64,000 bases of DNA from Stegostoma tigrinum (Eukaryota): positions 13,989,342 to 14,053,341 of the forward strand of contig NC_081391.1 in assembly GCF_030684315.1 (NCBI RefSeq), in the 5' to 3' direction. Below, piece by piece: positions 157-39,944 of the stretch. Every line of letters starts with the position of its first letter. Position 1 is the first letter of the stretch. Below the pieces are notes generated by a model. It ran no database searches, was not told the DNA's origin, and saw nothing but the letters and a program-made list of their open reading frames with translations. The translations under genes and the position numbers were made by a program.

Positions 157-886
157 AAGCCAGAGAGGGCTGAGTGGGGTAACAGCCTGCAGGCGCTGCA
201 GGTTGCCCTGGATCTGGAGAAGAATGTGAACCAGAGTTTGCTGGATCTACACCAACTCGCCACAGCCCAGACTGACCCTCATGTGAGCTTTCCCACCTCC
301 TCGTTCTGATCACTGCTAGGCCCTCAGGGCAACACCTCATTGGTCTTTTGTAGATTAAAATTCACTGGGATACTTTGATCACAATATCATATCTGAACAG
401 TATGTTCATTTAATCAACATTAAAACAGCTCAGCAATGAGCTGAAATGGGAATTTGGATTCAGTACCACGAGTGATGTTGGCCACTGAATTCACTTTCAG
501 GGCCACTTGCAGTAGAATGATCATTGTCTGTCACAGTTCAGCTCGGCTCCACTTCACAAACAACAAGGTGCATCTGGAATGTTACTGTCCTCCCTGGCGC
601 AACATCTAGATGTCAGTGGCTTTTCCAGCTGTCGAGAGCCAGTTATGGTGGGGTCTGTTTCGCAGTGGGAATTCTGAAAATTTCCTGGATCATGCAAATG
701 TACCAAGTTGCCATAATTCCTCTGTTGCAGCTGTGTGACTTCCTGGAGACCCACTATTTGGATGAGGAGGTGGAGATCATCAAGCAACTTGGGGACTACA
801 TCACCAACCTGAAGCGCCTGGGAGCCCCTGAGAATGGGATGGGAGAGTACCTGTTTGACAGGCTCTCCCTGGAGGACAGCAGTTAG
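157..886 (+). pseudogene. Ferritin copy A, truncated fragment with exon 3 (157-282) and exon 4 (731-886) only
   Basis: Exon 3 [42 protein letters not shown] with cag/gt boundaries; exon 4 [14 protein letters not shown]...LSLEDSS* after cag; AATAAA 1014-1019. Only ~60 nt of intron 2 precede exon 3, directly after another copy's 3' UTR, so its own exons 1-2 are missing. Confidence 0.8.
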
Positions 887-2475: not shown

Positions 2476-5400
2476 ATGAGTTCCCAGATCAGTCAGAACT
2501 GTCACCAGGATTGTGAAGCTACTGTCAAAAGGCAGATTAATGTGGAGCTCACTGCCTCCTATCTCTATCAGTCTTTGGTGAGTGGTGTCCCTGCAGGGTT
2601 AAAACTTGATCTATGTAGTTGAAGTAAATGTTTTCTCTTGAATTTAATTAACTGGGCACTCTCTCTTTGTAGATTGAGTTTTGTAGTCCTTTCCTAAATA
2701 TTAATTCAGGATAAGGGCAACGTTACTATACCAATGGGGTTTGATAATGATGTACTCTGAAGCTGGGTCCCAGTTGGGCTTCAGAGATATGTGGAGGATG
2801 AAGTGTCCCTGGAGATATTTGCCACTTTGGTGTTTGAATTGGCAGTAGATGTCATTCCCTCTAAGATTACCAAATGTTGGTAGGGTTACTTCAGAAAGGT
2901 ATTATATTGATCAGACTGTGGGACTAGAATCACCCACTGGCTAGTTACCCTCTTTCTGACAGGTTTAAGTATCTGATTTTATATTTGCTTGCTTTTGTGG
3001 TGATACTTAAATATCAATTCTGATATTGACAATGATAATTCCCTATTGCAGTCTGCTGTGGCTAATCTGAGCAAACCTACTTGAGGTTAGGCTGTGAGTG
3101 ACTGGTATCTGACTTTTTAAAGTAGATCTCAGCTGAGGCCTGCTTGGCATTTTGCACTCCCATCATGAGATGGGTGTGGCCTATCCCTGAACCTGTAGAA
3201 AGTTGATCTGCTTTAGTGTGTGGCGTGTTGAAGCTTCTGCAAACCATGTTTGCCTCCTGCCCCCTCACCCACACCCTGCATCCCCTCTAGCTGCTGGCGT
3301 CTGAGATTCATGGTCCAGTCTCTATGCCATCCTGATAGGGAACAAACTGTCCCCTTTAGCCAGGTGGCAGTGAACCTGTAACTTTCCAATGGGTAGAATG
3401 TTTCAGACAGTAGGAACAGCAGATGCTGGAGAATCTGAGATAACAAGGTGTAGAGCTGAATGAACACAGCAGGCCAAGCAGCATCAGAGGAGCAGGAAGG
3501 CTGATGTCTTGGGGCATGACCCTTCTGAAGGTGGGCCTAGGCCCAAAACAGCAGCCTTCCTGCTCCTCTGCTTGGCCTGATGTGTTCATCCAGCTCTACA
3601 TCATCGTATCTCAAGGGGTAGAATGTGTTTGGAAGTTGTGTTGAAGTAACCTTGGTGAGTGCTGCAGGGGACCTGGTAGATAATGGACCCTGAAAGGAGG
3701 TGGTGAATGCAGTCCCCATGAAGTGGGCTGCTCTGTCCTGGATGGTGTCTGCATCTTGAATGTTGTAGCTCCACCTCCACAGACACATGGAGAATCTTCT
3801 TCACTCTCAGCTTTTGTCTGTTAGAAAGAAGATGCCTCATGACAGATGGATGAAGCCCGTATAAACTCCATTTGGGAGGTGGGTACAGCTTTCATTGGTG
3901 AGCCAGTTGACGGGTTTTAATTACTGACCAGGGTCCCAATTCCCTTGGGGAACACGTGTGCCAATTATAAAATCCTTCCTATTCTCTCCTGCCACAGCTT
4001 GTTCCTACCCCGTTAAACAGACAAGAAATTTTGTTTGACTGCTTCTACATGAAGACAATAACTTCCCACCAGGCTTCCTCGACAACAAAACTCTTAGCTC
4101 CTGTTTCAAATATCAGAAGAATAGCCCTTCATAAACCTCAAGGCATTGGATTGTGAATATCTCGGTTCGGAAGTGAGTCACATATGGGTGGACAAACAAC
4201 AGAACGGTGCCAGCTGGGATAAGCCAAACTTTGTTGTCCAGCTTTGTGTTAACTAGTGACGTTAGATCAGCCATTATCTGTAGATACAGGTCACATTGGT
4301 TCTCTCTCTCCAATATTTGACCTTCCCTCAGTTTGATTCAATTTGTTTTGTTCATGTGACCCTTGTTCTCCCCCTTCTGGATGTGAGTGCACTAATTTTA
4401 GTGTGCTATAAACTATAACTGCAACAATCCAGAGGCAGTTACTGGGTAGGTTTTCCTTTGCACTATCTTGTTGTCGCTTTCTCTCATTCGCCTCTATTAT
4501 ATCTTGTAGTCATAAAATATACCGTACATTCAATCTCCCTGGTTTTGAGGCCACAGAAACCTTGCTTCGTCCTGGTTATATTGTTACAGCAGTGTCTAAC
4601 ATGTATTTCCATGCCAGCCCCAAAGGAGCAATAGTGTTACAGCTCCCCTACTCAAGTATAGCCTGCACTCCAGCTCCTGGTGCTTGTTTCAGCTGTTTGT
4701 TTGGCACTAATATTGTCCAATTCGAATGAAGGTTAGTGAGTGCAAACATGGCTGGATACAAGAAGAGCTATAATGCTGTGCCAGGCAGCCTGAGTAATTT
4801 ACTGTTTGTTTTAAGCCAAACTTTTGCCAGTTTCCAACAGGAAATTGGGATTGTTCTGTTTGATCCCAGTTGAAGGATCTGCTGGACAGCTGGACATCAT
4901 TGGGTTCTCAAACATGTTCACATACCAGGCAGTTAGTTTGCTGCAGAAGGCTGAACTAGAATTTGGAGTCAGTGCTGTGTTTAATGGGCTTTAACATGTT
5001 ATCTCCCTTCCAGATGTCCTACTTTGACCGGGATGATGTGGCCCTCCCCCACTTCTCCAGGTTCTTCAAAGATCAGTCCCGGGAGAAGCAGGAACATGCA
5101 GAGAAGCTGCTGAAATTCCAGAATCAGCGTGGAGGCCGAGTCCTCCTCCAGGATGTGAAGGTTGGAGTTGGGTGGGAGGGTTGCAGCTGTGGAGGAGAGA
5201 ATGGCAGCTCTTGTGGTGCTGCGTCCTGTTGGGATGTGAAAATCCTATTTTGGCATGGCTTCCCTGTTTGATTTCTTTTGAAGGCAGTTTCTAAACAAGC
5301 CCTATTGTCCACCATGTCTATGCTGCCCACAAACATCAAACTAGACTAACACAATTTCCTGCACTTAGTCCACAGCCGACTATCTTCTGGCATGAAGAAG

Positions 5401-7204
5401 TTGTTGAGATTAGGCTTCAATGTTGCTGGAGTAACTGCCTCCACTGACCCCTCAGGTAATGCATCCCATACCTCTCCCACCCTCGACTGGGTGGGTGGGT
5501 CCTCCAATCTCCTCAAACCTGTGCCATCTGGTCTTCATGTCTGCCATGGGGACTGTGTATTGTCCATCCTCCCTGATCTTCCACACTTCCATCAGATCAC
5601 CATCCCAGGCTATCCAACCTCCCTCTCATCATTGTATTTTTGTTGTCTTTTTTTGCTTCCATCTTGGGCCAACATCCTGATGACCCTCACCTGTACCCCC
5701 TGCAGTGCCACCTTGTCCCTCTGATGGTGGTTCTGGTCACCACACTACATTCCATCTTTGGTCTGGCCAATGCTGCCATGTTTGTGGCAAGACTCATCCT
5801 TTCTACTGAGCCCCAAATCATGGAGACCAGCATCATGTCAGCCCCTTCCCCACTCTGTCTACCTTTGCTGAACCTTGAGGGATGGACTTGGGCATTTGTT
5901 GCTTGTCCCTTTTACTGTAAGCACATTGCTCCCTTCAATGAATTAAATAGTAGTGATGTCTGATCATCCTGCTCAGACATGGATGAAGCCACCAGCACAG
6001 GTGAGACATAGATGCCTGGCCTGCAAGGTGCAGATTGGTACTCTACCTCAAGAGCCCTTGAGACTAAGGTGTCAATGTCCTGATCTAAACGCCAAATGGG
6101 CACTGGTGCAAACAGTTGAACTTTGTGTGAAATAAATCCCTAGCCCACAATGACTTCATGCTTCAGATCAAGGATAAATGGAGCAAAGTGAAGTCACTTC
6201 ACAAGTAATGAATGTGGGTTTTAGGGGTGGCACAGTTGCTCAGTGCCAGGGACACAGGTTTAGCTCTGGCCTCTGATGACTGGTGCTTACATGTTCAGGT
6301 TTCTTCCTACAGTCCAAATATGGGCAGGCTGGGTGAAGTAGCCATGGGGGAATTGCAGTGCGAATGGCTCAGGTAAATCTGAGATCTTCTTCAGAAGGTT
6401 GATTGCAGACTCAATGGGCTGAATGGCCTGCTCCCATGCTGCGGCGAGTCTCTGATTCTGAAGCTTAACTGTTCCTGTTTCCATCCTCAGAAGCCTGAGA
6501 GGGATGAGTGGGGTAACAGTCTGCAGGCAATGCAGGTTGCCCTGGATGTGGAGAAGAATGTGAACCAGAGTTTGCTGGATCTACACCAACTCGCCACAGC
6601 CCAGACTGACCCTCATGCAAGCTTCACCTCTTCATTCTCATCACTGCCATGCCTCCTCAACTTCATTGGTTGGTCTTTGTGGAGTGGAAATTCACAGACG
6701 TAACTTTGTCCAGATGCTACATTGTACCTTTGTCATCATAATTATGATGACAATGTTAAACTGCTCAACACCGAACTGAAATAGGAATTTGGATTACAGT
6801 CTAGTGGGAATGCTGATGTGATTTTTGGCTGCTGAATTGGGGATTGTTGCACTATACAATACAACTTGGAGCTCTTTAAGAAGGTGAGATGAAGCAGCTG
6901 AAATGTCCTCACTGGCACAAATTCTCCACCTGTTAGCTAGATTTTCAGGGATGTCTAGAACTAGCTATGGCTCAGTCTTTTTCAGTAGGAATTGTGAAGT
7001 TGTCTTGGATAGTATAAATGTACCAAGTGTCATATTCCTCTGTTGCAGCTGTGTGACTTCCTGGAGACTCACTATTTGGATGAGGAGGTGGAGATCATCA
7101 AGCAACTCGGGGACTACATCACCAACCTGAAGCGCCTGGGAGCCCCTGAGAATGGGATGGGAGAGTACCTGTTTGACAGGCTCTCCCTGGAGGACAGCAG
7201 TTAG
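2476..7204 (+). CDS. Ferritin copy B (exons 2476-2577, 5014-5160, 6491-6616, 7049-7204); open 176-aa frame but promoter deleted and intron 3 donor is GC; possibly a pseudogene
   Basis: Spliced translation [52 protein letters not shown]...[12 protein letters not shown]...[13 protein letters not shown]...LEDSS*. Donor after 6616 is gcaagc. AATAAA 7330-7335. No TATA/CCAAT/DR1 cassette upstream. Confidence 0.7.
3402..3611. mobile_element. Short inverted-repeat element, probably Penelope-like terminal-repeat derived, in intron 1 of B; remnant in F at about 36185-36318
   Basis: Inverted arms (gtagagctgaatgaacacagcaggccaagcag / ctgcttggcctgatgtgttcatccagctctac); flanking 15-bp direct repeat caatgggtagaatgt 3387-3401 and caaggggtagaatgt 3612-3626. 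Confidence 0.7.
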
Positions 7205-9133: not shown

Positions 9134-9315
9134 AGGTCAAAGGTCATTCAGCAATTCCATCATCCACCAGTTGTCAATTCTGGTTTCTGGATCCAATTCC
9201 CATCCTGCACTGATTGGACGTGGCAACTGATCAATTGATTAACAAGAGTGATTGGCCATCACTGATGATGTCATTTCCTGCTCAAAAAATGAGGGTCTTC
9301 TCCTGGAGTATAAAT
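9134..9315 (+). promoter_or_regulatory. Proximal promoter of copy C: DR1, two inverted CCAAT boxes, TGATGTCA/TTTCCTG motif, TATA
   Basis: AGGTCAAAGGTCA 9134-9146; ATTGG at 9213 and 9251; TATAAAT 9309-9315; block shared by seven copies. Confidence 0.75.
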
Positions 9316-9411
9316 AGAGCCCAATGGCATTGCTATTTTAGGTGTAGCTGATTTTCTTTCTATATTTATAATTTGGTTTTGTTGGATAAGGAAAGTTGTT
9401 TCTATCACAAA

Positions 9412-12400
9412 ATGGCCTCCCAGATCAGTCAGAACTATCACCAGGATTGTGAAGCTGCTGTCAACAAGCAGATTAATGTGGAGCTCACTGCCTCCTATCT
9501 CTATCAGTCTTTGGTGAGTGCTGTCCCTGTGGGGTTGGAGTTACTTCTGTTATGAAGTGAACTGTTTTTTTTTAAAACAAACTAGATTAATACTCTTGTA
9601 TAATAAAATGTGAGGCTGGATGAACACAGCAGGCCAAGCAGCATCTCAGGAGCACACGTTTAGCTTTTGTGCTCCTGAGATGCTGCTTGGCCTGCTGTGT
9701 TCATCCAGCCTCACATTTTATTATCTTGGAATTCTCCAGCATCTGCAGTTCCCATTATCTTTAACACTCTTGTAGACTTGTTTGTTTTTTTTTGTATCTC
9801 TCTTAGCTATTTCTTGATTCAGCGTAAATGTGGTGACAATGGGATATGATACTGATATGCAGCAACTGAGGCCCCAGTTGTCTCAATGATATATGGAGGG
9901 TGAAGCATCTTGTGATTTATCTTACAATTCCTTTTAGGGCTGTGATTGCCTATAACTGGCTGTGGCTCTCCATAATTTTCTAAACTACTGTCAAGCTTTG
10001 ATCCAGATAACCATTGGCTAACTACCTTTTTAAATCTGCCTTGATGTATCTGCTTTAATTTTGTGCATGTAAATAAACAAACATACTGGTTTTGGTATTT
10101 ACAATAAGGTGTTGTAGTAATTTGACAAATCAGATTTTTTTAAGCTGAACTGAAGTCCTTGAGGTAAGACAAGCTGCTCCCTGCTTAAGTAGGTCTCCGA
10201 TATTATTTTGGCTTTCTGTGCTCTATATCATGAAGTGGGTTTGATCCATCACTTCACAACCTATAGAAAGTTGACTTGTTATAGGTGCCTGCCCCCCCCC
10301 GACCCCCCCGCCCCCAAAAGGGGGCTGCTGGAACATGCTGAGGCTATTGACCCAGAGGTGAAGAAATAAATGTTCTTCCTTTACCATTTAACCAGATAAA
10401 GAAACAAACTGGCTCCTCCCACCATGTGGTGGTGCCCCTGTGCCCTTCCAAGGAGTAGAATGTGTTCAGAAGGTGTTGAGGTCCCCTTGGTGAGTGCTGC
10501 AGGGGACCTGGTAGATAATGGACCCTGAAAGGAGGTGGTGAATGCAGTCCCCACGAAGTGGGCTGCTCTGTCCTGGATGGTGTCTGCTTCTTGCACGTTG
10601 CAGCTCCACTTTTCTCCAGACACATGGAGAATATTCATCACTCTCTGGGCTTGTGCCTATTGGAAGGAAGTCCTATCTAGGGACATGAGGATAAAGTCCC
10701 TATAACTACCTTTTTGGGAGGTGGGAATAGCTTTAACTAGTGAACCAATTGTTGGGTTTTAGTCACTGACCACTGTCCCAACTCAATAGGGAATCTTGTG
10801 TGCTGATAATAAAATCCCCACTATTCTTCACCTTCTACAACTTAACTACCCAATTAAACCACTTTTTTAACTTTTAGTTTGTATTTGAGGATTAAACTAA
10901 CTTCTCACCAGGATTCTACCAAAGAACAACTTCTTCTTTTGATGTCAATAGACTGTTCCTAATCAGCAGTAACTTGTTGGATTGTGAATCTCAGTTGAAA
11001 AGTGAGTGAAATGAGTGGGGAAAACAATAGTTTAGCCTCTTGGAATAAGCTAAATTGAGCTCTCCAGCTTTGAACAAGTCAACAATCTATAGGTCACACA
11101 GTCCTGCAGATACCATTAGGCCTCCTGAACATTTGATCTTGTTTCAGTTGTGAATTTTAATGCTTTGCTTTGCAAGCTTCTGGCAACCTGAGTGCATGGC
11201 ATAAACAAATGTGATAAACTATTGCTGCAACAAGCCAAAGGCTGTCACTGGGCAGGCTCTCCTTTAGCACCAAGATTCTCCTAATCGCCCTCATTCTCCT
11301 GCATACTGCAAACAGCATCTCTTGTAGAGCTGCTTTATGTAAAAAAAAATACAGTACATCTGATCCAATTGGTTGCAGAAGACCTGTACCTACCAGCTAT
11401 ATTAATGTCCAGCATCTGCATGTTACTCGAGCACCAGGGGAGACATGTAATGACTTGAAGTTGCCTGACCCTGTGCACATCCTGCATTCCAGCTCCTGGC
11501 ACTTGTTTAAACCCTATTCAGTTACCACTTCCATCCATTTCTGGAGGCTAGATGGTAGAAATGTGCTTTCAGCTTTTCTATCCAGGCTGTGCCAGACACC
11601 CCCCCCCCCCAAACAATTCAGCAGGGTTTACAAACCAAAACACTGAATTTGCATCTTACGTGGAAGAAGCTGGGGTTGTTTGGTTTCCTCCAATTAAAGG
11701 AGCTGCTGGCTAATTTTGCAACACCATTAGTGAACATTGTAAGGTGTCAACAATTTTCAGCTGATTGAATCATTAGTTTGCTTTAGACTAAACCAGTCCT
11801 CCAGTTCTGAGCATGAGAAATGGGGTCAATGATGTGTTTAATGGGCTTTAACATGTTATCTCCCTTCTAGATGTCGTACTTTGACCGGGATGATGTTGCC
11901 CTCACCCATGTCTCCCGGTTCTTCAAAGATCAGTCCCAGGAGAAGCAGGAACATGCAGAGAAGCTGCTGAAATTCCAGAATCGGCGTGGAGGCAGAGTCC
12001 TCCTCCAGGATGTGAAGGTTGGAGTTTGGGAGGGGGGCATGGTGTGGTGTGCAGGAATGGTAGCTCATGGTGTTTTCTGTTAGTAGTGACAAGATTTTCA
12101 TGTGGTAAAGGATGTGAAGGTTGGAGTTGGAGAAGGCAGGCAGTGGGGAGGAGATGTGAGAAATGGCTGCTTATGGTGTGGTTTCATGTCCTGAAAGAAA
12201 GTGAAAACTGTTTTGTTTGGCTCCCCTCCTTTTGACTAAAAGGAAAGAAATCCCAGAAACAAGCCTCTTGGCTCCCCTCCACCTGCTGCTCCCCCCCCCC
12301 CCCCCCATGCTGACCCGATAAACACCAAACCACATGAATCCCATTTACTGCACTTGGTCTACAGCCCCCATGGCATTGGTAGTTGTCTAGAAGCTGCTTA

Positions 12401-14248
12401 AATATTGCAGCAGGAGATGCCTCCACCACTGCCCCACCCCCCCCATATTATTTTTCCACTACCCTCTCGGCAAAGGATTCCTCTAACCTGCTTACTCCTC
12501 ACATCAGTGCCCTCTGGTCTTAATGTCTCTTTCTCCCCACCCCCTCATAGCAGACACTCCCCATCTACTATCAAGACTCCACACTAATCAAATGCCATCA
12601 CATAAACATCTCAACTGACTTCACTCTGAGGATTGGAGTGAGAAATCTGATCTCTCCTTTTAATGGATTTTTCAGTCTTGGGGCAACATCCTGGTGACCC
12701 TTCCAGTGCCATTGTGGCTCTGGTCACCACACAGTATTCCACCTTTGCATGGCCAATGCTGCAAAGTTTGTGACAAGACTGGAGTCCCTGTCCTGCGCCC
12801 CAAGAAATGGGGAAGGGCATTGTGGAAGCCAACTTCCCCATCCTGTCTACACTTATGGATCCTTGAAATATCTCTAGTCTTGTTCTCTTGGTTCCTTTTA
12901 TTGTCAACATATTGCTGTCCCTTCAATGAATTAAATAGTAGTGATGCTTTTGATCATTCAGGTCAGTCCTATATGAAGCCATAAGCACAAGTGGGACTTC
13001 AACCTGGGCCTATGCTCCAAACCTAGGGACAGTACCACTGCATTACGAGCCCTGGGATTAAGTTGTGAATATCCTCCTTGGGATGCCATCAGATGGGCAC
13101 TGACAATTCTGTGCAAACATAACTCTTATCCCCACTATGACCTGGTTGTGAATTGACTTTCCTTTCGGAAGAAGCAAATAGGGCTAGGTGAAAGCAATTC
13201 CTTAAATCACTGATCTGTTCTTCCTGAGGACTTCAGGGATGGCGGTGGTTAGCACAACTGCATCAGTGCTTGGGGCACAAGCTTAATTCTGGAGTTGACA
13301 TGTTCACCGCATCTCTACATAGGCTTCCTCCCACAGTCCAAAGATGTGCAGGGTAGGATAGGCCATGAAAAATGCAGGATTACATGGCTGGGGCTAGGAC
13401 CAGGTTGGATGCTCTTCAGATGGTCATGAGTGGGCAGAATGGCCTGATGCATGCTGCAGGGATGTTGTTTCTGAGGCTTACCTGTCCTTCTTTCCATCCT
13501 CAGAAGCCAGAGAGGGATGAGTGGGGTAACAGTCTGCAGGCGCTGCAGGTTGCCCTGGATCTGGAGAAGAATGTGAACCAGAGTTTGCTGGATCTACACC
13601 AACTCTCCACAGCCCAGACTGACCCTCATGTAAGCTTCACCACCTCCTCATTCTCATCACTGCTAGACCCTCAGGGCAACACTTCATTGGTTGGTCTGTG
13701 TGGATTGGAAATTCACAGGTGTGCACTGATCACTTTGGGTCCATGCTGCTGAGCAGTTGTTACATGGTGATCAGTAATGAAGTGAAATGGGAGTTTGGAA
13801 GGCAATCCATTGGGAGTGATGAAGTGATATTGGCCATTGAATTCCCATTCTCACTTGGGAGCATTACAGTGGAATGATCATTGTCCATCACCATCCAACT
13901 CAGCTACACTTCACAAACAGCAAGATGGAGCAGCTGACATCCTATTGTCTTCACTGGCACAGATTTTCCAGGTGTTAGCTAAATTTTCAGGGCTGTCTGG
14001 AACTAGTATGGTAAAGCCTGTTTTTCAGTGGGAATTCTGAAATTGTCTTGGATAGTGTTAATGCACCCAGTTGTCATATTCCTCTGTTGCAGCTGTGTGA
14101 CTTCCTGGAGACTCACTATTTGGATGAGGAGGTGGAGATCATCAAGCAACTTGGGGACAACATCACCAACCTGAAGTGCCTGGGAGCCCCTGAGAATGGG
14201 ATGGGAGAGTACCTGTTTGACAGGCTCTCCCTGGAGGACAGCAGTTAG
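9412..14248 (+). CDS. Ferritin copy C, 176 aa (exons 9412-9513, 11871-12017, 13504-13629, 14093-14248)
   Basis: Four phase-0 exons of 102/147/126/156 nt, GT-AG introns at the positions typical of vertebrate ferritin genes, no stops; TATA 9309-9315; AATAAA 14376-14381. Confidence 0.92.
9601..9760. mobile_element. Hairpin-forming inverted-repeat insertion (Penelope-like pLTR derived) in intron 1 of C
   Basis: Perfect ~56-bp inverted arms; 14-bp target-site duplication ttaatactcttgta 9587-9600 and ttaacactcttgta 9761-9774. Confidence 0.8.
10425..10670 (-). mobile_element. Ancient LINE 3' relic in intron 1, shared by all copies (about 3612-3830, 27950-28200, 36320-36540, 53465-53710, 63150-63400; partly deleted in D and G)
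   Basis: Minus-strand translation [14 protein letters not shown] resembles the C-terminus of a common shark non-LTR retroelement RT (recalled, not database-checked). Confidence 0.55.
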
Positions 14249-16504
14249 TGTGGCCTGGAGTACTGTCTGCTTGGTCTGAATGCATTCCCCACTTCACCCT
14301 GGACAACCTGTCTCCTTCCAAGGAGAAGGGACTTGGAGCAAAGAATGTAATGGCTGTACCAGCTAAATGGAAATGAATAAAATCATGTATTGATCTTGCT
14401 TATTGTCCATCATTCAGAGCTCTGAATACTTTGGGTGATAGCTCTTGCTTGAAGCCAATTCGTTTTCTGTCATTTGATTGGTCCAATTTCTAATTGGATT
14501 AGGCAACCCTTCACAGAATAGCTCACTATCCCCACATTAGAATGTAACTCGATGGAGTGTTTTTTTTTGGTTAGTCCTGTGGAAATTGAAGGTGTTTCTC
14601 CTCCAAATAGGATAAGGTTGGGATTTGTCAATTGTGGCATTCTCCCTCTTCTAGAGGACAATTAGTGCGCTTCTGGATATGGTGGGTTCAACTGTAGCTC
14701 AAAGAAATTGTCTTCCTCTGGTGACAGGAAGTTCCCACACCTTCTAAATAGACTTCTCTACCCAGCCTGATAGAATTTGGGATAGTGGTGTTCAATTGCA
14801 CATTTCCCTTAATCTCTTCCCCGCCTCAGCCATCCTGCGTACTCAATTATTGCCTGAATGATGACAGCAACACAAAGTGAAGACAGCCCTTTATCTACTG
14901 ACCCAGCTGCCTGATCACAAAGGTCTAAAGGAAGAGGCCCAGCAGGCTCTGATTTCAATCCAGCTGGCGGAAGCAGCAGAGGTGTGAAACAATCTCGACT
15001 GCCTGGTATATCTCTTTTTTTTTTTTCCCCCATTGGGCCCTACCCTGACCAATAAACACTATATTCTCAGTATTGTTACTTTTGGTTTCACCATCCCAAA
15101 CTGTGGCTGGCGCTCTTTCTCTTCCGCTTCTCCTCACTTCTCTCACCCCGCCCTCCCCCCACCCAACCTTTTCTATCCACGTGCCCCCACCAGCCTAAAC
15201 ATTCACCACAGCCCCTTTCCCTGGGAGTCAGCTCCAGACGTTCACCTGAACTGTACTGGATTATAATGCAGGGCCTCATTGCTGCTTACAGCAGGATAAC
15301 AGGGACCTGGGAAGAACACAGCAATGCACCTGGTTAAATGCTGCTGTTTGATTGGCTCTTGTTGCTAATGCCAGCATTGAGCACACTAAGCTGCTCCTTT
15401 GGTTCCTCTGAGCTTTCCCCCATGGTGAACATTACTCCTGATGCAGGTTGATTGGGTGAAATCACATTGAAGGAGCAAAGTGGCTCGGAGGAGACATGGA
15501 GATGCTGACTTTCCTTTACGGCTGCTTCTTTTATCTTTCAAGGTGTCAGAGATCATGGGTTCGTGAGGGGGCTATCAGAGACATCCTGAGGATTGTTCCA
15601 GGGAGTTTTGTAGCGAGTGCACACTGCAGCCTTCATCGAGGTTGGCTGGGGTGGGGGGGGGTGCTGCAGAGTCAAAAGGCACTCAACATATTTGTTCCAC
15701 CACATAAAGCAATTTATTTTTGGTGACAATAAGTCTTGGCTACAGTAACCCTCAAGTGCAGGAAGGGACCATTAGGCCCATTAAATCTGCATCGACCTTC
15801 TGAACAGCATCCTCCTTAGACCCAACCCCTTTGCCTTAACTCCACATTTCCCACGGCTAATCGACCTAGCCTGCAGGCCCCTGCTCACGATCGACAATCT
15901 GCAAATCGTTGGGCTGTGTGAGGAAACTCAAGCACCTGGAAGAAATCCACGCAGTCCATCACCCAGGGGGAGAATCGAACCTGGGTCCCTGGCACTGAGG
16001 CGCCAAAACATTCTAAAGTACCAAAGGAAAGGAATACACTGCGGCAAACTACGCCATGGGAATAGACTCTGCAGCGCAGCCCGAACTTGCAGACCAGGTT
16101 TTCATAAACTGTGTAGTGCCATTTGCCTACGTTTGGCCCATCTTTCTCTAAACCGTTCCTTTCCATGTAAATCTCCAAATGTCACTTAAATGTTGTAATT
16201 CTATCCACCTCGACCACTTCCTCTGGCAGCTCGTTCCATACACGCACCACCCTCTGTGTGACAATGTTGTCACTCACGCCCCTTTTAAATCTTGCCGCTC
16301 TCCCCTCAAACCGGTGCCCTCTAGTTTTGGACTCCCCTACCCTGTCCCAGCATGCTTTTTATATACAGTCAATCTTGAGTGTGCCAATGGCAAGGCTACA
16401 TTTAGTGCTCAGCAACTGTTACACTTCAGGAGGTGGTGATGAGCTGCTTATTACAGTCCACCTGGTGTCGGAGAGACCGGAATGATGCTGCTGCTGCTGC
16501 TGTT

Positions 16505-17582: not shown

Positions 17583-20500
17583 ATGGCCTCCCAGATCAGT
17601 CAGAACTATCACCAGGATTGTGAAGCTGCTGTCAACAAGCAGATTAATGTGGAGCTCACTGCCTCCTATCTCTATCAGTCTTTGGTGAGTGGTGTCTCTG
17701 TTGGGTGAAACATACTTCTGTTCTGTTGAAGTGAACTCTTCCCCTTGGATGTAATTAAGTTGTCTATCTTATAGACTGAGTTTTGTGGCTCCTCCCTCTT
17801 TCTCAATGCAGGATGAGTGTGATGTTACTGTAACAATAGTTTGGTGTCTAATGTTACTCTAACTTGGGTCCCAGTTGGTTGTCAGTGAGATGTGGAGGGT
17901 GGAGTGTTCTTGTAGTTACTTGCCTGTCCCATGATGGTGCTGTGACTGGTGGTAATTATAGCTTCCTGTGGCTGTTTGAAACTTGAGGGAACAAAATTAA
18001 AAATGAATTGGGACTCACCATTGTGGGAATGGAAGCACCATCAGCTAGTCACTGCTTTTCTTGTATCCTTGTTTCTATTTGAATCTTGTGGGGATCTGAA
18101 GTAAACCTGCCAATTGTGACTGAGAATCTTGGTTTCCTATTGCAATCAGCTTAGAATAGGCTTGTTCTAGCCCTACAGTGATGGGCCGAGAGGTGGCAAA
18201 TGGAGTTTAATGCAGACAAGTGTGAGCTGATGCACTTTGGTAGGAGTAACCGGAAGGCAAAGTACAGGGCTAATGGTAAGATTCTTGGTAGTGTAGATGA
18301 GCAGAGAGATCTGTGTCGATAGGTAGACACGGATTGTTCAAAGTTGCCACCCAGGTTGACAGGGCAATTAAGGCAGTGTTTTGTCTTTTATTAAGAGGAT
18401 TGAGTTCTGGAACCAAGAGGTTATGGTGAAGCTATCCAAAAACTCTGGTGCATACAGTTCTGGTCACTGCATTATAAGGATGTGAAGCTTTGGAAAGGGT
18501 GTAGAGGAGATCTGCTAGGATGTTTCCTGGTATGGAAGGAACATCTTATGAGGAAAGGCTGAGGGACTTGAGGCTCTCTTCATTAGAGAGAAGAAGGTTG
18601 AGAGGTGACTTAATTGAAACATATAAAATAATCAGAGGGCTAGTTCGGGTGGATAGGGAGAGCCTTTTACCTAGATGGTGATGGTGAGCATGAGGTGGGG
18701 TAGCTTTAAATTGAGGGCTGATAAATATAGGACAGATGTCAGAGGTAGTTTCTTTACTCAGTAAGGGAATGCAATGCTTTGCCTGTGACAGTAGTAGATT
18801 TGCCCACTTTAGGTACACTTACGTCATCATTGGATAAGCAAATGGGCGTACATGGAATAGTGTAGGTTAGATGGGCTTGAGATCAGTATGACAAGTCGGC
18901 ACAACATCAAGGGCTGAAGGGCCTGCACTTGGCTGTTATGTTCTATGCTCAGATTAAACTGGGTGAGGTTGTGACTCTTATCTGATTAAGCAGATCTCCA
19001 TTTGAAATCTACCTTGCTTTTCTTCATACTCATGAGGTGGGTGTGGGCTGTCTGTATGTCAAGTGTTGGAGCTTTTCAAAGGCACAGCACTGCCATGGGG
19101 CTGAGAATGTACTGACCCAGTGACTCTGGTTAAAAAGTTTATGCCCATTGTATTTGGCCTGATTGTAAACTAACTGGACCCTCTTTCCCCAGGTGGGGTG
19201 CTTGTGCCCTTCCAAGGGGTAGAAGGTGTTTACGTAACCTTGGTGTTTGTTGCAGGGTGCTCTCTGGGCTTGTCCCTGTCACCAGGAAGTCCCCCTCCTG
19301 ATGAGGATCAAGCCCCTGTCAGCCCCAGTTTGGGAGGGGGAACAGCTTTCATTGAGCCAGCAGTTGGGTTTTAATCACTGACCCATTGTCCCAACACACC
19401 TTGTAAGCATGTGCCAGGAATGAAATCCTTACTATTCTACATCTTCTAACTGCACATTTAAATCGCAAAGATAAATTGTGCTTGTGTTTGCATTTGAGAA
19501 TTGAAGCAACTTTTTTCAGCAGGATTTGTAAGAATGTGCTTGTTACTGGCTGCTTCCAATAGCAGACCTGCTAAACCTCAATACATTGAATTGTGAACAT
19601 CCTGGTTTAGAAATCTACAGGACTTTGCCTGTTGGATTAAGTCAACAGTGGTTTTTCCAGGTTAATGAGGGATCTTGTCTGGAGAGTAGTTGATCTGCAG
19701 ATCACTGTCATATTTGTCATGTGATCAGTTTGTTTTGTCAGTCTTTGTTTCATGTGTAATGGTACAAGTTGCTAGCAGTCTGAGTCAGTGCAGCTGTTTC
19801 AGATGCAACAATAAACTGTTGCAGTAACAACCCAAAGGCTGTCCTTAGGCAGGCTTTCCTTGGCAGATTCTTGGAGCTAACATCCTTCATTCATCTCCTC
19901 ATGCCCCCCCCAGCCACCCCAATACTGCAGTTCTTGTCAAACTAATAGATACAGTGCATCCAATTGCATTGATCCTGACTCAGCAGAAAATGTGCTTCTT
20001 CCAAGCTGTTAATTGCAGTGTCTAGGATCTGTTTTCTGGTCTTTGCCAAAGCAGCAATACAGTGCCCTGCAGCTGTTCTATTGGTGTACATCCTGCACTC
20101 CAGCCCCTGGCATTTCTTGAAACCCTATTCAATCAAAGATTTATCCCATTTCTGGTGGAGGTTAATCAGTAAAAACATCAATTCACACTTGTTCTCACCA
20201 AATGCTGTGCCAGACCCTCCTGGGCAATTTGCCTGGAGTTTCAAACCAAAATAAAACACATGGTATTTACAGCTTACTGGAGGAAGCTGGGATTGTTTTG
20301 ATTTTTCCAATTCAACAGCAACTGTTCAAAACTGGGTTCTGAATTGTTAATGCATCAGGTACTTAACAGCTTATTGTCAGTTTGATTTTGAGAATGCTCA
20401 AGTAGCCCTGTAGTTCTGAACTGAAATTGGCCCATGACTTGTTAATGGACTTTACCTTGTTCTCCCTTCCAGATGTCCTACTTTGACCGGGACGATGTTG

Positions 20501-22730
20501 CCCTTCCCCATTTTTCCCAGTTCTTCAAACATCAGTCTCAGGAGAAGCGGGAACATGCAGAGAAGCTGCTGAAATTCCAGAATCAGCGTGGAGGCGGAGT
20601 CTTCCTCCAGGATGTGAAGGTTGGAGTTGGGTGGGGTGGGGAATGGGATGGTAATGGCTGCTCTTGTGGTGTGGTTTCAAGTCAGTGACAAGGTTTTCAT
20701 TTGAGTCAAAACTTTGTTCAGCCTGTTTGATCTCCTTTTTGAAGCCAGTGTGGAAAGAAGCCCTTTGGCCCACCATGTCTATGCTGACCCCACAAACACG
20801 AACAACATTAATCCCACTTACCTGCCCTTGGTCCACAGGCCACTGTCCTGGCACTAAGTATTTGTCCAGCTGGACCCTAAACTGATCTGGAGTAGCTGTC
20901 TCCACCACCATCCAACCCTTTATGTGGTTCATCTCATATTTCAAACAGCCCCTCAGAGGGGTGGGGGTGGGGTGAAGTTTCCTCCAATCCCCTCTAACCT
21001 GCTTACTCCTCAAACCTGGTTTCTCTCCTGTCTTGGTGTCTGCCATGGGAAGACATTCCATCAACTGGCCACTCTCTATTCTTCAATTACATCAGGTCAC
21101 TCCCTCAGCCGTTCCTGCTCCACAGAAAATCCCAGCCTATCTAACCTCCAATCAATGGATCTTGGGCAACAGCCTGGGGAACCTCACCAGCTTCCCCCTG
21201 CAGTGCCATCCTGTCCAGGTGACTGGTGAGGCCAAAGAGGAATAATGTGGTGACCAGAAAAACAAACTGAGGAGACTGGTCCCCTTCCTGTTCCACCACA
21301 CCCAACTAATAGAGGTTGCTTGCCCTCTGTCACTGTTACACCCTGTTGACCTTGTCTGAACTTTGAGGGATCTATGGTTGTGGGCCTTTCTTAACTGTTA
21401 GCAGCACAACACACTTTGCAAACACCTCGCTGTCCCTTGGATGAATTAAATAGCCGTGATGTTTCTGATCATCCTGCTCAGGCATGTATGAAGCCACCAG
21501 CACAAGTGGTACTTGAACCTTGGCCTTGTCAGCCAGAGACAGGGGCACTACCACTGTACCATGACAGCATTTAGGATTCACTTGTGAATATCCTCGCAAT
21601 TCCATCAGATGGACCCTGATGCAAATCTTGTCATTATCCCCCACAATGACCTGTTATTCACCTTCCTCCTTCAGATCAAGGACCGACAGGCAAGGTGAAA
21701 GCAATTCTGAAGGAACTGTGCTCCAGGGCTGCCTCAGGGGCTAGCAGTGTTCTCAGTGCCAGGGACACAGGTTTTGATCTGGCCTCTGGTGAGGGACTGG
21801 TGTTTACATGTCCTCCCCGTGTCTGCGTTGGTGTCCTCATAGTAAAAGAGGATTGGCCATCTGAAATGCAGGGTTACAGGAATAGGGTGGGAGAAGGACG
21901 AGTTGGGATCCTCTTCAGAGCAGTTACAGACTGATCCACGTTGTAGAGATTCTGAAGCTTAACAGTCCTTCTTTCCCTCCTCCAGAAGCCAGAGAGGGAT
22001 GAGTGGGGTAACAGCCTGCAGGCAATGCAGGTTGCCCTGGATCTGGAGAAGAATGTGAACCAGAGTTTGCTGGATCTACACCAAGTTGCCACTGCCCAGG
22101 CTGACCCTCATGTAAGCTTCACCTCCTCATTGACTTCACTGCTAGGCCCTCAGGGCAACACCTTCATTGGTTGGTCTTTTGTGGATTAGAAATTCAGTTA
22201 GACTTTGTTTTTGTGCAGATGACATGGATCACTTCAGATCCATAGTGATTACAAAATCATTGCTGAGCAGTTGACTCCAAGTATGTATTTTAACTTGTAA
22301 ACCTGTGGGGAGGACTGAGGGGATATTGGTCACCGAATTCTCATTCAGGGCCACTGCAGTGGAATGACTTTTATCCATCACAAGTCAACTCTGCTCCAGT
22401 AAATAAACAGCAAGATGAAGCAGCTAAAAAGCAGTTGTCCTCTTTGCACAATTTCTCCAGGCGTTGGCTCTAGTCATCCCTGACAATCTCCCTCCATATG
22501 CATGTTTTTCAGTGGGGATTCTGAAGTTTCTTGGATAGTGTTAATGTACCAAGTGTCATATTCCTCTGTTGCAGCTGTGTGACTTCCTGGAGACCCACTA
22601 TTTGGATGAGGAGGTGAGGATCATCAAGCAACTTGGGGACTACATCACCAACCTGAAGCGCCTGGGAGCCCCTGAGAATGGGATGGGAGAGTACCTGTTT
22701 GACAGGCTCTCCCTGGAGGACAGCAGTTAG
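17583..22730 (+). CDS. Ferritin copy D, 176 aa (exons 17583-17684, 20473-20619, 21986-22111, 22575-22730)
   Basis: Intact spliced frame, GT-AG introns; TATA 17489-17495; AATAAA 22857-22862. Confidence 0.92.
18174..18947 (+). mobile_element. 5'-truncated, decayed CR1-type LINE in intron 1 of copy D
   Basis: RT C-terminal motifs ([11 protein letters not shown]) and the same 3' end and gttctat tail as the elements at 25.3 and 50.8 kb; ends approximate. Confidence 0.85.
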
Positions 22731-27182: not shown

Positions 27183-30100
27183 ATGGCCTCCCAGATCAGT
27201 CAGAAATATCACCAGGATTGTGAAGCTGCTGTCAACAAGCAGATTAATGTGGAGCTCACTGCCTCCTATCTCTATCAGTCTTTGGTGAGTGCTGTCTCTC
27301 GGGGTTAAACATATAAATCTGTTCTGTTGAAGTAAATTCTTTGCCTGGCCTCTAGTGAAGCTGACAATCTAGTAGATTGAGGTTTTGTGGCTCCTACCTA
27401 AATATCAGTTCAGGATAGAGGTGGTGTTACTATCACGATGGTGTAGGATACTGATGTATGTTAACTCAGGTCCCAGTTGGCCTTCAGTGGTATCTGGAGG
27501 GTAAAAGCCTCTTGCTTTTGTTTTCTTTCTGACACAAGTTTCCTGACTTCATTTGCCTGATCTCTGTGGTGGTCCTAAACAAACATGCTGATTTTTTTTA
27601 ACACTGACAATAACAATAACTTCCCTGTTGCAGTGGCCCTTGTTAGTCTGAACAAACCTGAGGCTAGTCTGTGACTGGTATCTATTTTATGTAGATCTCC
27701 TTCATTGAGGCTGACTTGGCTTTACTTGTATTTATTCAAGAGGTGGGTGTGGCCTATCCCGTCCCTACTGAGAGTTGATCTGCCGTGTGTGAGAAATGTT
27801 GGATCCCCTCTCTGCCCCCTCTCCTCCCCACCCCACCCCACACTGGGGCTGCGGGAATGTGGTGAGGCTATTAGCCCAGTGACATTGAAGAAATGGAGGT
27901 TGTTCCCATATCATTTAGCTTGACCTAAAACAAAATGTCCCCTCTATCCTGGTGGTGATGTGACTGTGCCCTTCCAAGGAGTAGAATGTGCTTGGAAGGT
28001 ATGTGTTGAAGTAACCTTGGTGAGTGCTGCAGGGGACCTGGTAGGTAATGGACCCTGAAAGGAGGTGGTGAATGCAGTCCCCATGAAGTGGGCTGCCCTG
28101 TCCTGGATGGTGTCTGCTTCTTGCATGTTGTAGCTCCCCTTCTACAGACACATGGGGAATATTTATCTCCCTCTGGGCTTGTGCCTATTGGAAGGAAGTT
28201 GTCTTGTAATGAGGACTAAGTCCCTATAAGCCTCACTTGGGAGGTGGGACCGCTTTATTGGTGAGCCAGTTGTTGGGGTTTAATCACTGTGTCCCACCTC
28301 AACTGGCACATGCTTCCCAAGGATAAAATCCCGACTATCTTCTGCCACAACTTGTAACTACCCACTGAAACCACAGATATTTGCTTGCCTGAGTGTGGTT
28401 TTTGGATTTGAGGATTAAAGTAACTTTACAGGAGTCCTTCCCCAGAATGTAATTCTTAGCTGATGCTTCCAATAGCGAGCATTAGCTCTTAAACCCTTAC
28501 ATCGAATTGTGAACGTGACAGTTTAGATATGAGTCACATGGGCTGAAAACCTACAGGATTTTTTGCCTGTTTGGGTAAAGTCAGGGCAAGTGTTTTTCCA
28601 GGTTACTGTTTTCACTAGTGACGTTATCTACAGGCCACTAATAGTTGACATTTGATCATTTGTTTTGCAATTTGTTTCAGTCATGTGACTTGGTGCAAGC
28701 TTTTGACAGCCTGAGTTTGCACTATTTAGGCAGAGCAATAACCCACTGCTGCAACGATCCAAAGGCTGTTACTGGGCAGGCTTTCCTCGGCATTATCTTA
28801 GTGCCAAACTCCAAACTGGAGACAGCACACCTTTGTAGAGTTCATGTGTACACTTACATCCCAATCTCGTTGATCCTGGGTTTGCAGAAAACATGCTCCC
28901 TACTAGTCGTTGACTACAGCAGGGTTTCAACATCTTTTTTTCCAGTTTTCCCCAAAGGCAAAACATAGTACCTTGCGTCTTGTAGTTGAGAACTGGAATG
29001 GGGAGTGAGCCAGTGTTGTCTGATGTAATTTTAACTTGATCTTCCAGATGTCCTACTTTGACCGGGACGATGTTGCCCTCGCCCATTTCTCCCGGTTCTT
29101 CAAAGATCAGTCCCAGGAGAAGCGGGAACATGTAGAAAAGCTGCTGAAATTCCAGAATCAGCGTGGAGGCCGAGTCCTCCTCCAGGATGTGAAGGTTGGG
29201 GTTGGGTTTTGGGGGAGTGCAGGGGGGAATGGCTGCTCTTGCGGTGTCATCTCCAGTGACAAGATTTTCAGATCCTGAGCGAGTGTGAGAAGTTCTTTTG
29301 CTTGGCTTCCCTGTTTGCTCTCCTCCATCTCCAGTGTTTCAGCATTTATGCAAGCCCTCTGGTCCACCAGGCCTATGCTGACCCAGCAAAGACCGAACTG
29401 TACTCACCCTGTTCTTGGTCCAGGCCCTACTATACCCTAGTGTTAGCACTCGCCCAGCTAGTCCTTTAAACAGTGCTGCAGTAGCCGTTTCCAGCACTTT
29501 GTTCTTCCGTTCCCCAACACACCCACCAAATTTCCTCCAATCCCCTCTATCCTGCTTCCTCAAACCTGTGCCCTCTGGTCTGAGTGTCTGCCATGGGGAA
29601 GACATTTTCCCCATCTACTGTCCAGACTTCCTTGTCTTCCATCAAACAACCACCTCAGCCTCACCTGCTCAAAGGAAACCCCCCAGCCCATCCAATCTCT
29701 CTCCTCAATGGATTTTCTGTCTTGGGGAAATAACCTGGGGACCCTCACCAGCACCCCCTGCAGTACCATCCTGTCCTTCTGACTAGTGAGGCCAACGATA
29801 GAATGCAGCAGAGGCCAGAAGAACAATTTTCATAAAATGTGTTCAAAGGACTTGTCCCTGTGCTGTTCCTCACAACCCTGCCCCAAACTAACACATGTTA
29901 CTTGGCCTATGTCCCCTTTCACACACAGTTTGCCTTGTGTGAGCATTGAGGGATCGATGATCCTGTGTTTATTGTAAGCACATTACTGCCCCCCACAATG
30001 AATTCCAGTAATGATGGTTCTGACCATGCTGCTCGGGCATGTATGAGGCCACAAGCACAAGTGAGACTTGAACCTCAGCCTTGTCAACCGAAGCTTGGGA

Positions 30101-31346
30101 CACGACCGCTACTTCCCCCACAGCCCTTGGGATTCACTCCTGAATATCCTTTTTAAGACTCCAGCAGATGGACACTAGTGCAAATGACTAATCTGGTACA
30201 TATTTATTCCCTGTGGTACAAGGATATGTTCCTGAGCTTCCGGCTTCAGGTCAAGGATAAATGGGGCAAGGTGAAAGGAGTCACCAAGTAGCTAATGTTT
30301 TCTTTATCTGGACTTCAGGGATGGCACACTGGCTCAGTGGTTGGCACTGTTGACTCAGTGCCAGGGGCACCAGTTTGGTTCTGGCCTGTGACAAGAATTT
30401 AAACGTTATCCCAAAGCATGGCTTCCCCACACAGTAGAAAAGAGGATTGGCAACTTGAAATGCAGGTTACACGAACAGGGTGGGAATGGGACCAGATGGG
30501 ATGCTCTTCAGCAGTTATGGTCTCAATGGGGTGAATGGCCAGCTCCCATGCTGCAGGGATTCTGTTTCTGAAGCTTACCTGTCCTTCTCTCCATCCCCAG
30601 AAGCCAGAGAGGGATGAGTGGGGTAACAGTCTGCAGGCAATGCAGGTTGCCCTGAATCTGGAGAAGAATGTGAACCAGAGTTTGCTGGATCTACACCAAC
30701 TCGCCACAGCCCAGACTGACCCTCATGTAAGCTTCACCTCCTCATTCACATCACTGCTAGACCCTCAGGGTAACATTTCATTGGTTGGTCTGTGTGGATT
30801 GGAAATTCACTGATGTAACACTTTCCATCCATTACTTTCCTGAACTATTGTAACATTGTAATCAGTATGATCCCAAGTGATCAATGAGGTATAAGGGGAA
30901 TTTGATCTATAATCTAGTGGAAGTGCTGAAATGACGTTGGCCACTGAGTTCTTCATTAGTATCATTGCAGTGGAATGATCATTGTCCATCACAATCCAAC
31001 TCAGCTCCATTTCACAAACAGCAAGATGCAGCAGCTGACATGTTGTCCTCACTGGCACAAATTCTCCAGGTGTTAGCTCGCTTTTCAGGGCTGTCCAGAG
31101 CTAGTCATGGCTAAGTCTGTCTTGCAGAGGGAATTCTGAAATTGTCTTGGATAGTATAAATGTACCAAGTGTCATATTCCTCTGTTGCAGCTGTGTGACT
31201 TCCTGGAGACTCACTATTTGGATGAGGAGGTGGAGATCATCAAGCAACTTGGGGACTACATCACCAACCTGAAGCGCCTGGGAGCCCCTGAGAATGGGAT
31301 GGGAGAGTACCTGTTTGACAGGCTCTCCCTGGAGGACAGCAGTTAG
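27183..31346 (+). CDS. Ferritin copy E, 176 aa (exons 27183-27284, 29048-29194, 30601-30726, 31191-31346)
   Basis: Intact spliced frame, GT-AG introns; TATA 27090-27096; polyA site is AATGAA (31474-31479) with ATTAAA at 31522-31527. Confidence 0.92.
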
Positions 31347-38700: not shown

Positions 38701-39944
38701 ATGAAGCCACTGGCACAGGTGAGACATAGATGCCTGGCCTGCAAGGTCTAGATTGGTACTCTACCTCAAGAGCCCTTGAGACGAAGGTGTGAATGTCCTG
38801 ATCTAAATGACAAATGGGCACTGGTGCAAACAGTTTAACTTTGTGTGAAATAAATCCCTGTCCCCACAATGACTTCATGCTTCAGATCAAGGATAAATGG
38901 AGCAAAGTGAAGTCACCTACAAGTCATCAATGTGGGTTTTAGGGCTGGCACAGTTGCTCAGTGGTTAGCACTGCTGCCTCAGTGCCAGGGACACAGGTTT
39001 AGCTCTGGCCTCTGGTGACTGGTGCTGACATGATCAGTTTCTTCCTACAGTCCAAATATGGGCAGGCTGGGTGAAGTAGCTGTGGGGGAAATGCAGGGCT
39101 ATGGGATCAGGTAAATCTGAGATCTGCTTCAGAAGGTTGATTGCAGACTCAATGGGCTGAATGGCCTGCTCCCATGCTGCAGGAAGTCTGATTCTGAGGC
39201 TTAACTGTTCTTCTTTCCCCCCTCCAGAAGCCAGAGAGGGATGAGTAGGGTAACAGCCTGCAGGCAATGCAAGTTCTCCTGGATCTGGAGAAGAACGTGA
39301 ACCAGAGTTTGTTGGATCTACCCCAACTCGCCACAGCCCAGACTGACCCTCATGTAAGCTTCACCTCTTCATTCTCACCACTGCCATGCCTCCTCAACTT
39401 CATTGGTTGATCTTTGTGGAGTGGAAAGTCACAGACGTAACTCTGTCCAGATGCTACATTGTCATCATAATTATGTTATTAAGGTACAATGTTACAACTG
39501 CTCAACACTGAACTGAAATAGGAATTTGGATTACAGTCTAGTGGGAATGCTGATGTGATTTTTGGCTGCTGAATTGGGATTGTTGCACTATACAATACAA
39601 CTTGGAGCTCTTTAAGAAGGTGAGATGGATCAGCTGAAATGTTGTCGTCACTGGCATCAATTCTCCACCTGGTAGCAAGATTTTCAGGGCTGTCTAGAGC
39701 AAGTTATGGCTAAGGGTTTTTCAGTGGGAATTGTACAATTGTCTTGGATAGTGTTAATGCACCCAGTTGTCATATTCCTCTGTTGCAGCTGTGTGACTTC
39801 CTGGAGACTCACTATTTGGATGAGGAGGTGGAGATCATCAAGCAACTGGGTGACTACATCACCAACCTGAAGCACCTGGGAGCCCCTGAGAATGGGATGG
39901 AAGAGTACCTGTTTGACAGGCTCTCCCTGGAGGACAGCAGTTAG
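35799..39944 (+). pseudogene. Ferritin copy F, nonsense pseudogene (exons 35799-35900, 37732-37884, 39228-39353, 39789-39944)
   Basis: Exon 2 has a 6-nt insertion and a CGA>TGA stop at 37861-37863; exon 3 has a TGG>TAG stop at 39246-39248; radical changes E61V and H65P. Confidence 0.92.
38941..39180 (+). mobile_element. Decayed V-SINE-like element at the 3' end of intron 2, present at this position in all full copies (about 6224, 13237, 21735, 30256, 48080, 55884)
   Basis: agggctggcacagttgctcagtggttagcactgctgcctcag...cagtccaaa...aatgggctgaatggcctg resembles the SINE at 40208. Confidence 0.65.

Follow-up and report, generated by a model that had tools for sequence, protein, structure and literature searches.

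A megabase array of zebra shark ferritin genes with a light-chain-type lysine at the bridging ferroxidase ligand

In animal ferritins E62 is a ligand of the ferroxidase centre, and the double mutant E62K/H65G abolishes ferroxidase activity (PMC6929972; ligand lists in Table 1 of PMC10114856); light (L) chains carry a stabilising K58-E104 salt bridge, equal to K62-E107 in the numbering used here (PMC3754865). The sponge ferritin HdF2 carries E62K (PMC8395497), and abundant ferritin transcripts in fish follicles as well as yolk ferritins in other animals have been reported (PMC1488847). For sharks, a preprint on the Greenland shark counts 155 'FTL' and 179 'FTH1' copies in clusters common to the great white shark, the largest ferritin cluster being ovary-specific in expression (10.1101/2024.09.09.611499). 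Here we describe a stretch of 64,000 nucleotides of the zebra shark (Stegostoma tigrinum; contig NC_081391.1, positions 13,989,342 to 14,053,341, hereafter the window) made up of head-to-tail four-exon ferritin genes spaced by ~8.5 kb. These genes are part of an array of ~167 same-strand copies across 1.42 Mb in which the bridging ligand at position 62 is a lysine (K62).

Ligand residues and expression of the array

Copy C of the window (Table 1) encodes, in a 176-aa open frame whose introns are all GT-AG and in phase 0, an animal cytosolic ferritin with a four-helix bundle plus E helix (Pfam PF00210) and the three-fold channel residues C130/D131/E134; no signal peptide was evident in its exon 1 sequence. 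The AlphaFold2 model is a normal ferritin bundle (predicted local distance difference test score, pLDDT, of 90), and the best matches in the PDB and by fold are to the frog middle (M) chain, with ~70% identity and a template modelling (TM) score of ~0.94, which likens the protein to the M chains of frogs and fish. A preliminary description made from the letters alone had claimed the changes E62K and Q141E for copy C, and alignment to frog M ferritin bears this out: the Lys in exon 2 (QSQEKQEH) coincides with the bridging Glu in HEEREH, and the Glu in exon 4 (HYLDEEV) with the site-B Gln in LEEQV. Misalignment, with the Lys at a non-ligand position, was ruled out by this alignment and by the ligand table of relatives, indicating that, as judged from aligned residues, the Lys at position 62 occupies the true ferroxidase ligand site. 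The intact di-iron centre of M and heavy (H) chains (E27, E62, H65, E107 and Q141) is absent, with K62 and E141 instead, and E27, Y34, E61, H65 and E107 are kept beside them, as had been described. E62K amounts to a single G-to-A change. Every copy of the window that has the exons concerned carries the two residues (K62 in 7/7 exon-2 copies, E141 in 8/8 exon-4 copies), again in line with the earlier claim. Copy C departs from the commonest residues of the array at 8 positions, Q75R, Y151N and R157C being rare changes among these, and may be a less typical member.

The array was read gap-free over 12.90-14.49 Mb of C50, the chromosome of the window (the window lies at 13.99-14.05 Mb). Matches to exons 1 to 4 numbered 167, 169, 167 and 167, all on the plus strand between 12,987,143 and 14,403,990, and the 164 complete units comprise 114 that are intact and 50 that are broken. 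Leaving out gapped copies (31 for exon 2, 9 for exon 3 and 3 for exon 4), K62 was found in 138/138 copies of exon 2 (136 AAG, 2 AAA), E141 in 164/164 of exon 4, E27 in 167/167 and E107 in 158/158 of exon 3, while H65 and E61 were found in 131/138 and 129/138 copies of exon 2; a pattern count over all 169 exon-2 copies recognised a Lys in 166, the other 3 giving no match. E27, Y34, E61, H65 and E107 occur together with K62 and E141 in 99 of the 113 intact full-length copies. The residue count over the array also upheld the statement that position 57 is D or H and position 60 Q or R. The ratio of nonsynonymous to synonymous differences per site (pN/pS) was 0.29 among 97 distinct intact coding sequences, and intron 3 identity between copies was ~74% (25 random pairs). 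Together, the data indicate that the K62 array is real and conserved, and not an artefact.

Upstream of the coding frames TGATTGG was present in 149/164 complete units and a TATA-type box in 112 of 164; AATAAA followed the stop within 200 nt in 136/164, and a GC donor is used by 18 of the 114 intact copies. A pattern search of the 200 nt upstream of the ATG found no hairpin resembling an iron-responsive element (IRE) in any of the 164 units, and an Rfam scan of the window gave no match; in the same genome, as a positive control, Rfam did detect IREs in two other ferritin genes, one FTH1-like (on C20) and the other a single gene with an intact site (C50:21.61 Mb). A second ferritin array, of M type, lies ~5.5 Mb from the K62 array at ~19.9-21.55 Mb of C50, with a part on C216, in both orientations; it is known from searches that scored the best 40-150 candidates. 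The exon-2 copies read in three of its loci have E62, its chains carry E57 and E62, and an Rfam scan of three loci found no IRE.

No sequencing run is on record as RNA, and run X6 was taken as RNA from its splice joints. It contains joints at all three predicted GT-AG introns (15, 24 and 16 contigs; sides of 25-26 nt), loose ends agree with these, and outside repeats the introns are almost free of cover; minor joints skip exon 2, exon 3 or both (window 9513-14093). Runs X7 and X10 showed no ferritin splice joints, and X1, X2 and X5, of which small shares were read, showed none either and are uninformative either way. Run X6 also contains spliced transcripts of a ZP1/ZP4-like egg-envelope gene (CT-AC joints), as well as an 18-nt loose end that matches the three M-array loci checked and is absent from the K62 array. 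ZP1/ZP4-like genes themselves form a large tandem array at 39.5-42.2 Mb of C38 (L161, L180), where most of the 74 listed ZP matches fall, a parallel amplification of oocyte genes. The expansion of shark ferritins and its link to the ovary are already in print; the split by catalytic site is not in section 6 of the preprint (10.1101/2024.09.09.611499). A literature search that left out most subscription journals yielded neither an account of a K62 shark ferritin nor kinetics of a single E62K or Q137E mutant.

Distribution and origin of the lysine 62 clade

K62 proteins were found in 12 shark species of five orders (Stegostoma, Rhincodon, Hemiscyllium, two Chiloscyllium, Mustelus, two Scyliorhinus, Cetorhinus, Carcharodon, Heterodontus and Heptranchias), and the Lys is present in 58/58 tabulated proteins of this clade. 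E141 occurs in carpet sharks (Orectolobiformes) only, in 27 of 30 rows, the remainder being two truncated rows and one with an aberrant end; Q141 stands in 28/28 rows of the other four orders (Carcharodon 4, Cetorhinus 4, Heptranchias 4, Heterodontus 5, Mustelus 5, Scyliorhinus 6). Since E141 is confined to carpet sharks within an older K62/Q141 clade, it came later than K62. The channel residues C130/D131/E134 as well as E27, E107 and E64 are kept across sharks, and H65 is replaced by C or R in the 4/4 Heptranchias members tabulated. No ray or chimaera K62 member was among the matches listed (the best 120 of 2613, with at most 15 members per cluster). Isolated occurrences of E62K are also found in an M-array gene of Heptranchias, a lizard gene of the M clade and a ferritin from a brachiopod (P0073, P0120 and P0198). 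Three vertebrate-type ferritins deposited as Salmonella or Aeromonas (P0253, P0256 and P0088), one of them, P0253, identical to a Carcharodon protein, are likely contamination or mislabelling.

The K62 clade received support of 100/98-100 in every tree. In a tree of 113 rows (LG+G4), from which 31 fused, redundant or mislabelled rows had been removed beforehand, it joined the chondrichthyan M array with support of 89/53, and with six ligand columns dropped (56 rows) K62 and shark M joined at 82/66. When all columns of 59 rows were used, the best tree joined K62 with lungfish and tetrapod L chains in 132/200 bootstraps, versus 55 for shark M, whereas removal of columns 62 and 141 from the same rows left the K62 and L grouping in 0/200 and raised K62 with shark M to 173/200. 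Thus the attraction to L chains rests on the trait residues, as convergence would look. The K62 genes do not group with vertebrate FTH1, which, unlike them, has an IRE in this genome (the FTH1-like gene on C20); the trees were built without the teleost and frog 'lower subunit' lineage. Pointing the same way as the trees built without the trait columns, that is, to an origin from shark M, the K62 promoter aligns with one M-array promoter (L159; z 5.4 and 7.5, 0/300 shuffles, and still 0/200 with the TATA removed), and it gave no alignment to the two IRE-bearing genes. C9 was considered as a marker common to K62 and shark M and was not used, being present in 12/24 M rows and also in turtle M.

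The preliminary description had offered an early FTL branch or convergent loss of catalysis. These were the right alternatives, and convergence is favoured (0/200 versus 132/200 bootstraps, and E141 in carpet sharks only), although an approximately unbiased (AU) test did not reject K62 and L as one clade (p=0.37). We consider a convergent origin of the K62 clade probable, and its orthology to FTL rather unlikely.

Compared with FTL of mammals, reptiles, amphibians and lungfish, the shark chains are alike in K62, in E141 where carpet sharks are concerned, in an E107 kept for a possible salt bridge, and in an overall identity of 60-68%; the Xenopus tropicalis L chain P0182 has the same residues at 27, 62, 65 and 141. 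Unlike FTL, they keep E27 and H65, which are lost in nearly all amniote L chains tabulated, and they lack the E57/E60 pair of cavity nucleation, which turtle L chains lack too; their genes have no IRE, stand in ~167 tandem copies and, in trees built without columns 62 and 141, do not join L. Several stretches that had been called L-like do not hold up as such: EAAVN, DEWG and DPHLCDFLE[TS]H are not diagnostic of L chains (E[AD]AVN occurs in 3/31 L versus 17/24 shark M, DEWG in 6/7 FTH1), and GEYLF[DE]RL, found in 21/31 L chains, is also present in 8/24 shark M. The shark M array is similar in identity (70-74%), chromosome, absence of an IRE in the loci checked and a partly homologous promoter; M chains differ in keeping E62, Q141 and an intact centre, and the K62 genes make up a separate clade and a separate array. 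Sponge HdF2 likewise combines an independent E62K with loss of the IRE (PMC8395497), and snail and schistosome yolk ferritins are likewise linked to the egg (PMC1488847), but the atypical invertebrate ferritins are far more diverged, HdF2 also losing E27, H65 and E134, whereas the shark protein is otherwise highly conserved. The Greenland and great white shark expansion shares ancient, very large clusters and ovary expression; its section 6 gives no ligand analysis, tree or IRE status, and its 'FTL' copies may or may not belong to the K62 clade (10.1101/2024.09.09.611499).

Synteny with FTL neighbours, proposed earlier as a check, gave a divided answer. Human FTL neighbours BAX, GYS1 and RUVBL2. 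C50 carries RUVBL2 and DNAAF3, and a TMEM150-type gene adjoins the right end of the K62 array; all three are genes of human 19q13, which makes C50 the FTL-homologous chromosome. RUVBL2 is thus on the same chromosome, but 4.1 Mb from the array, whose direct neighbour is the TMEM150-type gene, and a search with a stricter first look found no glycogen synthase gene on C50, GYS matches falling on C20 and C33 only. No ferritin exon was found in 50 kb around RUVBL2 or in 50 kb at DNAAF3/SYT, and Pfam scans of selected flank frames (24 and 48) found no gene to the left of the array. C50 also carries an unidentified Bcl-2-family gene at 26.4 Mb. The SYT-DNAAF3 pair of C50 (18.80-18.84 Mb) is met again in Umbra P0041, a divergent teleost ferritin that is annotation-fused to SYT and DNAAF3.

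Proposed role and competing explanations

We lean slightly towards reading the K62 subfamily as a likely ferroxidase-null, oocyte-bulk subunit, probably derived from the sharks' own active M chains and not from the L lineage, that would serve as an L-like stabilising and storage component of mixed cages. Two steps of this proposal are observed, namely the amplification of an IRE-less, TATA-containing gene to ~167 copies and, in one RNA run, the presence of spliced K62 transcripts alongside egg-envelope ZP transcripts. In the protein, the Lys would replace the bridging Glu and pair with E107 as in L chains, stabilising the helix bundle, so that the di-iron site could not form; a single E62K change would presumably be enough to abolish activity. 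Fe(II) would enter through the intact three-fold channels and be oxidised by co-assembled M-type (E62) chains of the second array, and the oxidised iron would be held as a maternal reserve, K62 chains contributing stable bulk without catalysis to the mixed cage. In the absence of an IRE, synthesis would follow promoter, transcription and copy number, and not the iron level. From the tree, E62K would have come first in sharks and Q141E later in carpet sharks, completing the residue pair of L chains; E141 may be a later charge adjustment beside the Lys. The K62 protein would thus act like an L chain, although it lacks, or leaves undecided, most of the features of FTL membership. On a wider reading, which we hold tentatively and just short of an even call, a light chain was invented anew in sharks: in early sharks an M-type gene of the ovary would have lost the bridge through E62K and grown into a megabase array of its own, to which carpet sharks added Q141E, and shark eggs would build two-subunit cages in which the ratio of catalytic to storage chains is set by copy number instead of an IRE.

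Several points weigh against the M-derived, ferroxidase-null reading. As to descent, the AU test leaves a K62 and L clade unrejected, the best all-column tree makes that join, weakly, and L37 is common to K62 proteins and L chains; as in the K62 proteins, E27 is retained in L chains of lungfish and frogs, which go by the name of oocyte isoforms. Support for K62 with shark M is modest (82/66 to 87/63), the promoter likeness is strong for 1/4 M promoters and weak or absent for the other 3, the 176 residues carry little signal, and gene conversion between the arrays could mimic an affinity to M. As to function, E27 and H65 are kept and the published null mutant, E62K/H65G, has two changes (PMC6929972); with the Glu at 57 and 60 missing, a role in nucleation is doubtful, and co-assembly, iron loading and the salt bridge are predictions. 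Within the array 88/176 positions are invariant, so the invariance of K62 there says little by itself and was set aside as a weak proof of selection. Expression comes from one run, as contigs only, with joint sides of 24-32 nt and no assignment to a level, a tissue or copy C.

The alternative of a true shark FTL orthologue draws on the same points. It holds that E62K arose once, in an oocyte ferritin of early jawed vertebrates, and that subsequent gene conversion between it and the shark M array has obscured tree and promoter, and it is in keeping with the AU result, the 132/200 bootstraps, the shared K62 and L37, the E27 of lungfish and some frog L chains (given the name 'oocyte isoform' in databases, a Xenopus one keeping both E27 and H65) and the presence of RUVBL2, a neighbour of human FTL, on the same chromosome. 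We regard it as unlikely, given that the grouping disappears once columns 62 and 141 are dropped, that Q141 stands in four of five shark orders, that the genes have no IRE, that the array lies far from RUVBL2 beside a TMEM150-type gene on a chromosome where no glycogen synthase gene was found, and that no ray or chimaera member was among the matches listed.

Other explanations concern the role of the proteins. The proteins might have left iron metabolism altogether and serve as a self-assembling bulk protein of the egg cytoplasm, be it an amino-acid store, a ligand carrier or a structural cage. The loss of both the catalytic bridge and the nucleation residues 57 and 60, the absence of an IRE, the extreme dosage in a separate array and the similar amplification of the ZP array fit this account, as does the title of a reference in PMC1488847 that names ferritin the main ATP-binding component of amphibian oocytes; however, the iron-entry channel and E27, E107 and E64 are kept across sharks and an M-type fragment is present in the same RNA run, and we consider the account improbable. 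That the centre is remodelled into a slow ferroxidase, in which E27, E61, H65, E107 and E141 still bind and oxidise iron at a rate suited to slow oocyte loading, would agree with the 99 intact copies that keep all the residues concerned and with the two changes of the cited null mutant (PMC6929972). A cationic side chain at the bridging position speaks against it, and the replaced H65 of Heptranchias and the changed Q141 of carpet sharks fit a relaxed catalytic constraint; we consider a slow ferroxidase quite improbable. Least of all do we expect a decaying pseudogene array through which an inactivating change was spread by unequal crossing-over: 50 of the 164 complete units are indeed broken, but pseudogene decay was rejected as an account of the array on the spliced RNA, the 114 intact units, the pN/pS of 0.29 and the retention of K62 across five orders, and it is very improbable.

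Further ferritin genes and significance of the array

The features of the window are collected in Table 1. The exon translations of copy G equal protein P0010, which NCBI names 'middle subunit-like'. Among NCBI ferritin models several are over-long (P0001-P0004 and P0042-P0044), and P0001 and P0002, in which exons 2-3 are repeated, are probably gene-prediction fusions across adjacent copies.

Table 1. Features of the window (positions count from its first letter)
Feature	Position	Strand	Evidence
Copy A, exons 3-4 (gene starts left of the window)	157-886	+	sequence
Copy B, open frame; GC donor at intron 3; no TATAAA in 160 nt upstream	2476-7204	+	
Copy C, two inverted CCAAT-type boxes (TGATTGG) in the proximal promoter	9211-9217, 9249-9255	+	sequence; function putative
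Copy C, TATA box, 103 nt 5' of ATG; short 5' leader without IRE	9309-9316	+	sequence
Copy C, exon 1 (E27 codon 9481-9483; Y34)	9412-9513	+	sequence; spliced joint to exon 2 in run X6
Copy C, exon 2 (E61, K62, H65)	11871-12017	+	sequence; run X6 joints
Copy C, Lys codon AAG at bridging-ligand position 62 (E62K)	11943-11945	+	sequence, alignment
Copy C, exon 3 (E107 codon 13564-13566)	13504-13629	+	sequence; run X6 joints
Copy C, exon 4 (channel residues C130/D131/E134, E141, stop)	14093-14248	+	sequence; run X6 joints
Copy C, Glu codon GAG at position 141 (Q141E); within the K62 clade only in carpet sharks	14129-14131	+	sequence, alignment
Copy C, AATAAA polyadenylation signal	14376-14381	+	sequence
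Copy D, open frame	17583-22730	+	
Copy E, open frame	27183-31346	+	
Copy F, pseudogene (in-frame stops in exons 2 and 3); K62 and E141 still present	35799-39944	+	
Copy G, open frame; exon translations equal protein P0010	43889-49062	+	
Copy H, open frame	52704-56912	+	
Copy I, exon 1 (gene runs on right of the window)	62335-62436	+	

Elsewhere in the genome, the single IRE-bearing, intact-site ferritin next to the M array (minus strand, L154:7265-9459, C50 ~21.607-21.609 Mb) could be the somatic ferritin gene on the FTL-homologous chromosome. Close to it on the plus strand (L179:1488-1757 and L154:98-1906, C50 ~21.59-21.60 Mb) is an intron-containing ferritin with a long N-terminal extension rich in Arg, Gly and Leu that matches Heptranchias P0036; the extension resembles a mitochondrial targeting peptide, and the gene is a candidate for a mitochondrial ferritin of sharks distinct from FTMT of mammals. 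Intronless, stop-containing matches at C11:45.82 Mb, C5:51.55 Mb and C13:59.49 Mb and on C2, C43 and C17 are probably processed pseudogenes. When the genome was searched with an L chain of lungfish type, no further spliced gene resembling L was found among the best 150 of 1654 candidates scored.

Database labels such as 'middle' or 'heavy subunit-like' imply active enzymes, yet a 1.4 Mb array carries the inactivating Lys of L chains; counts of shark ferritin expansions, such as those of the Greenland shark work, therefore mix likely active with likely dead subunits. The natural series of K62/Q141, K62/E141 and, in Heptranchias, K62 with H65 lost offers a residue-by-residue view of the evolution of L chains. 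If sharks did invent a light chain a second time, living species preserve intermediates of the route from H to L; if instead the K62 clade is the orthologue of FTL, the L chain would go back as far as the jawed vertebrates themselves, with a probable start in the egg.

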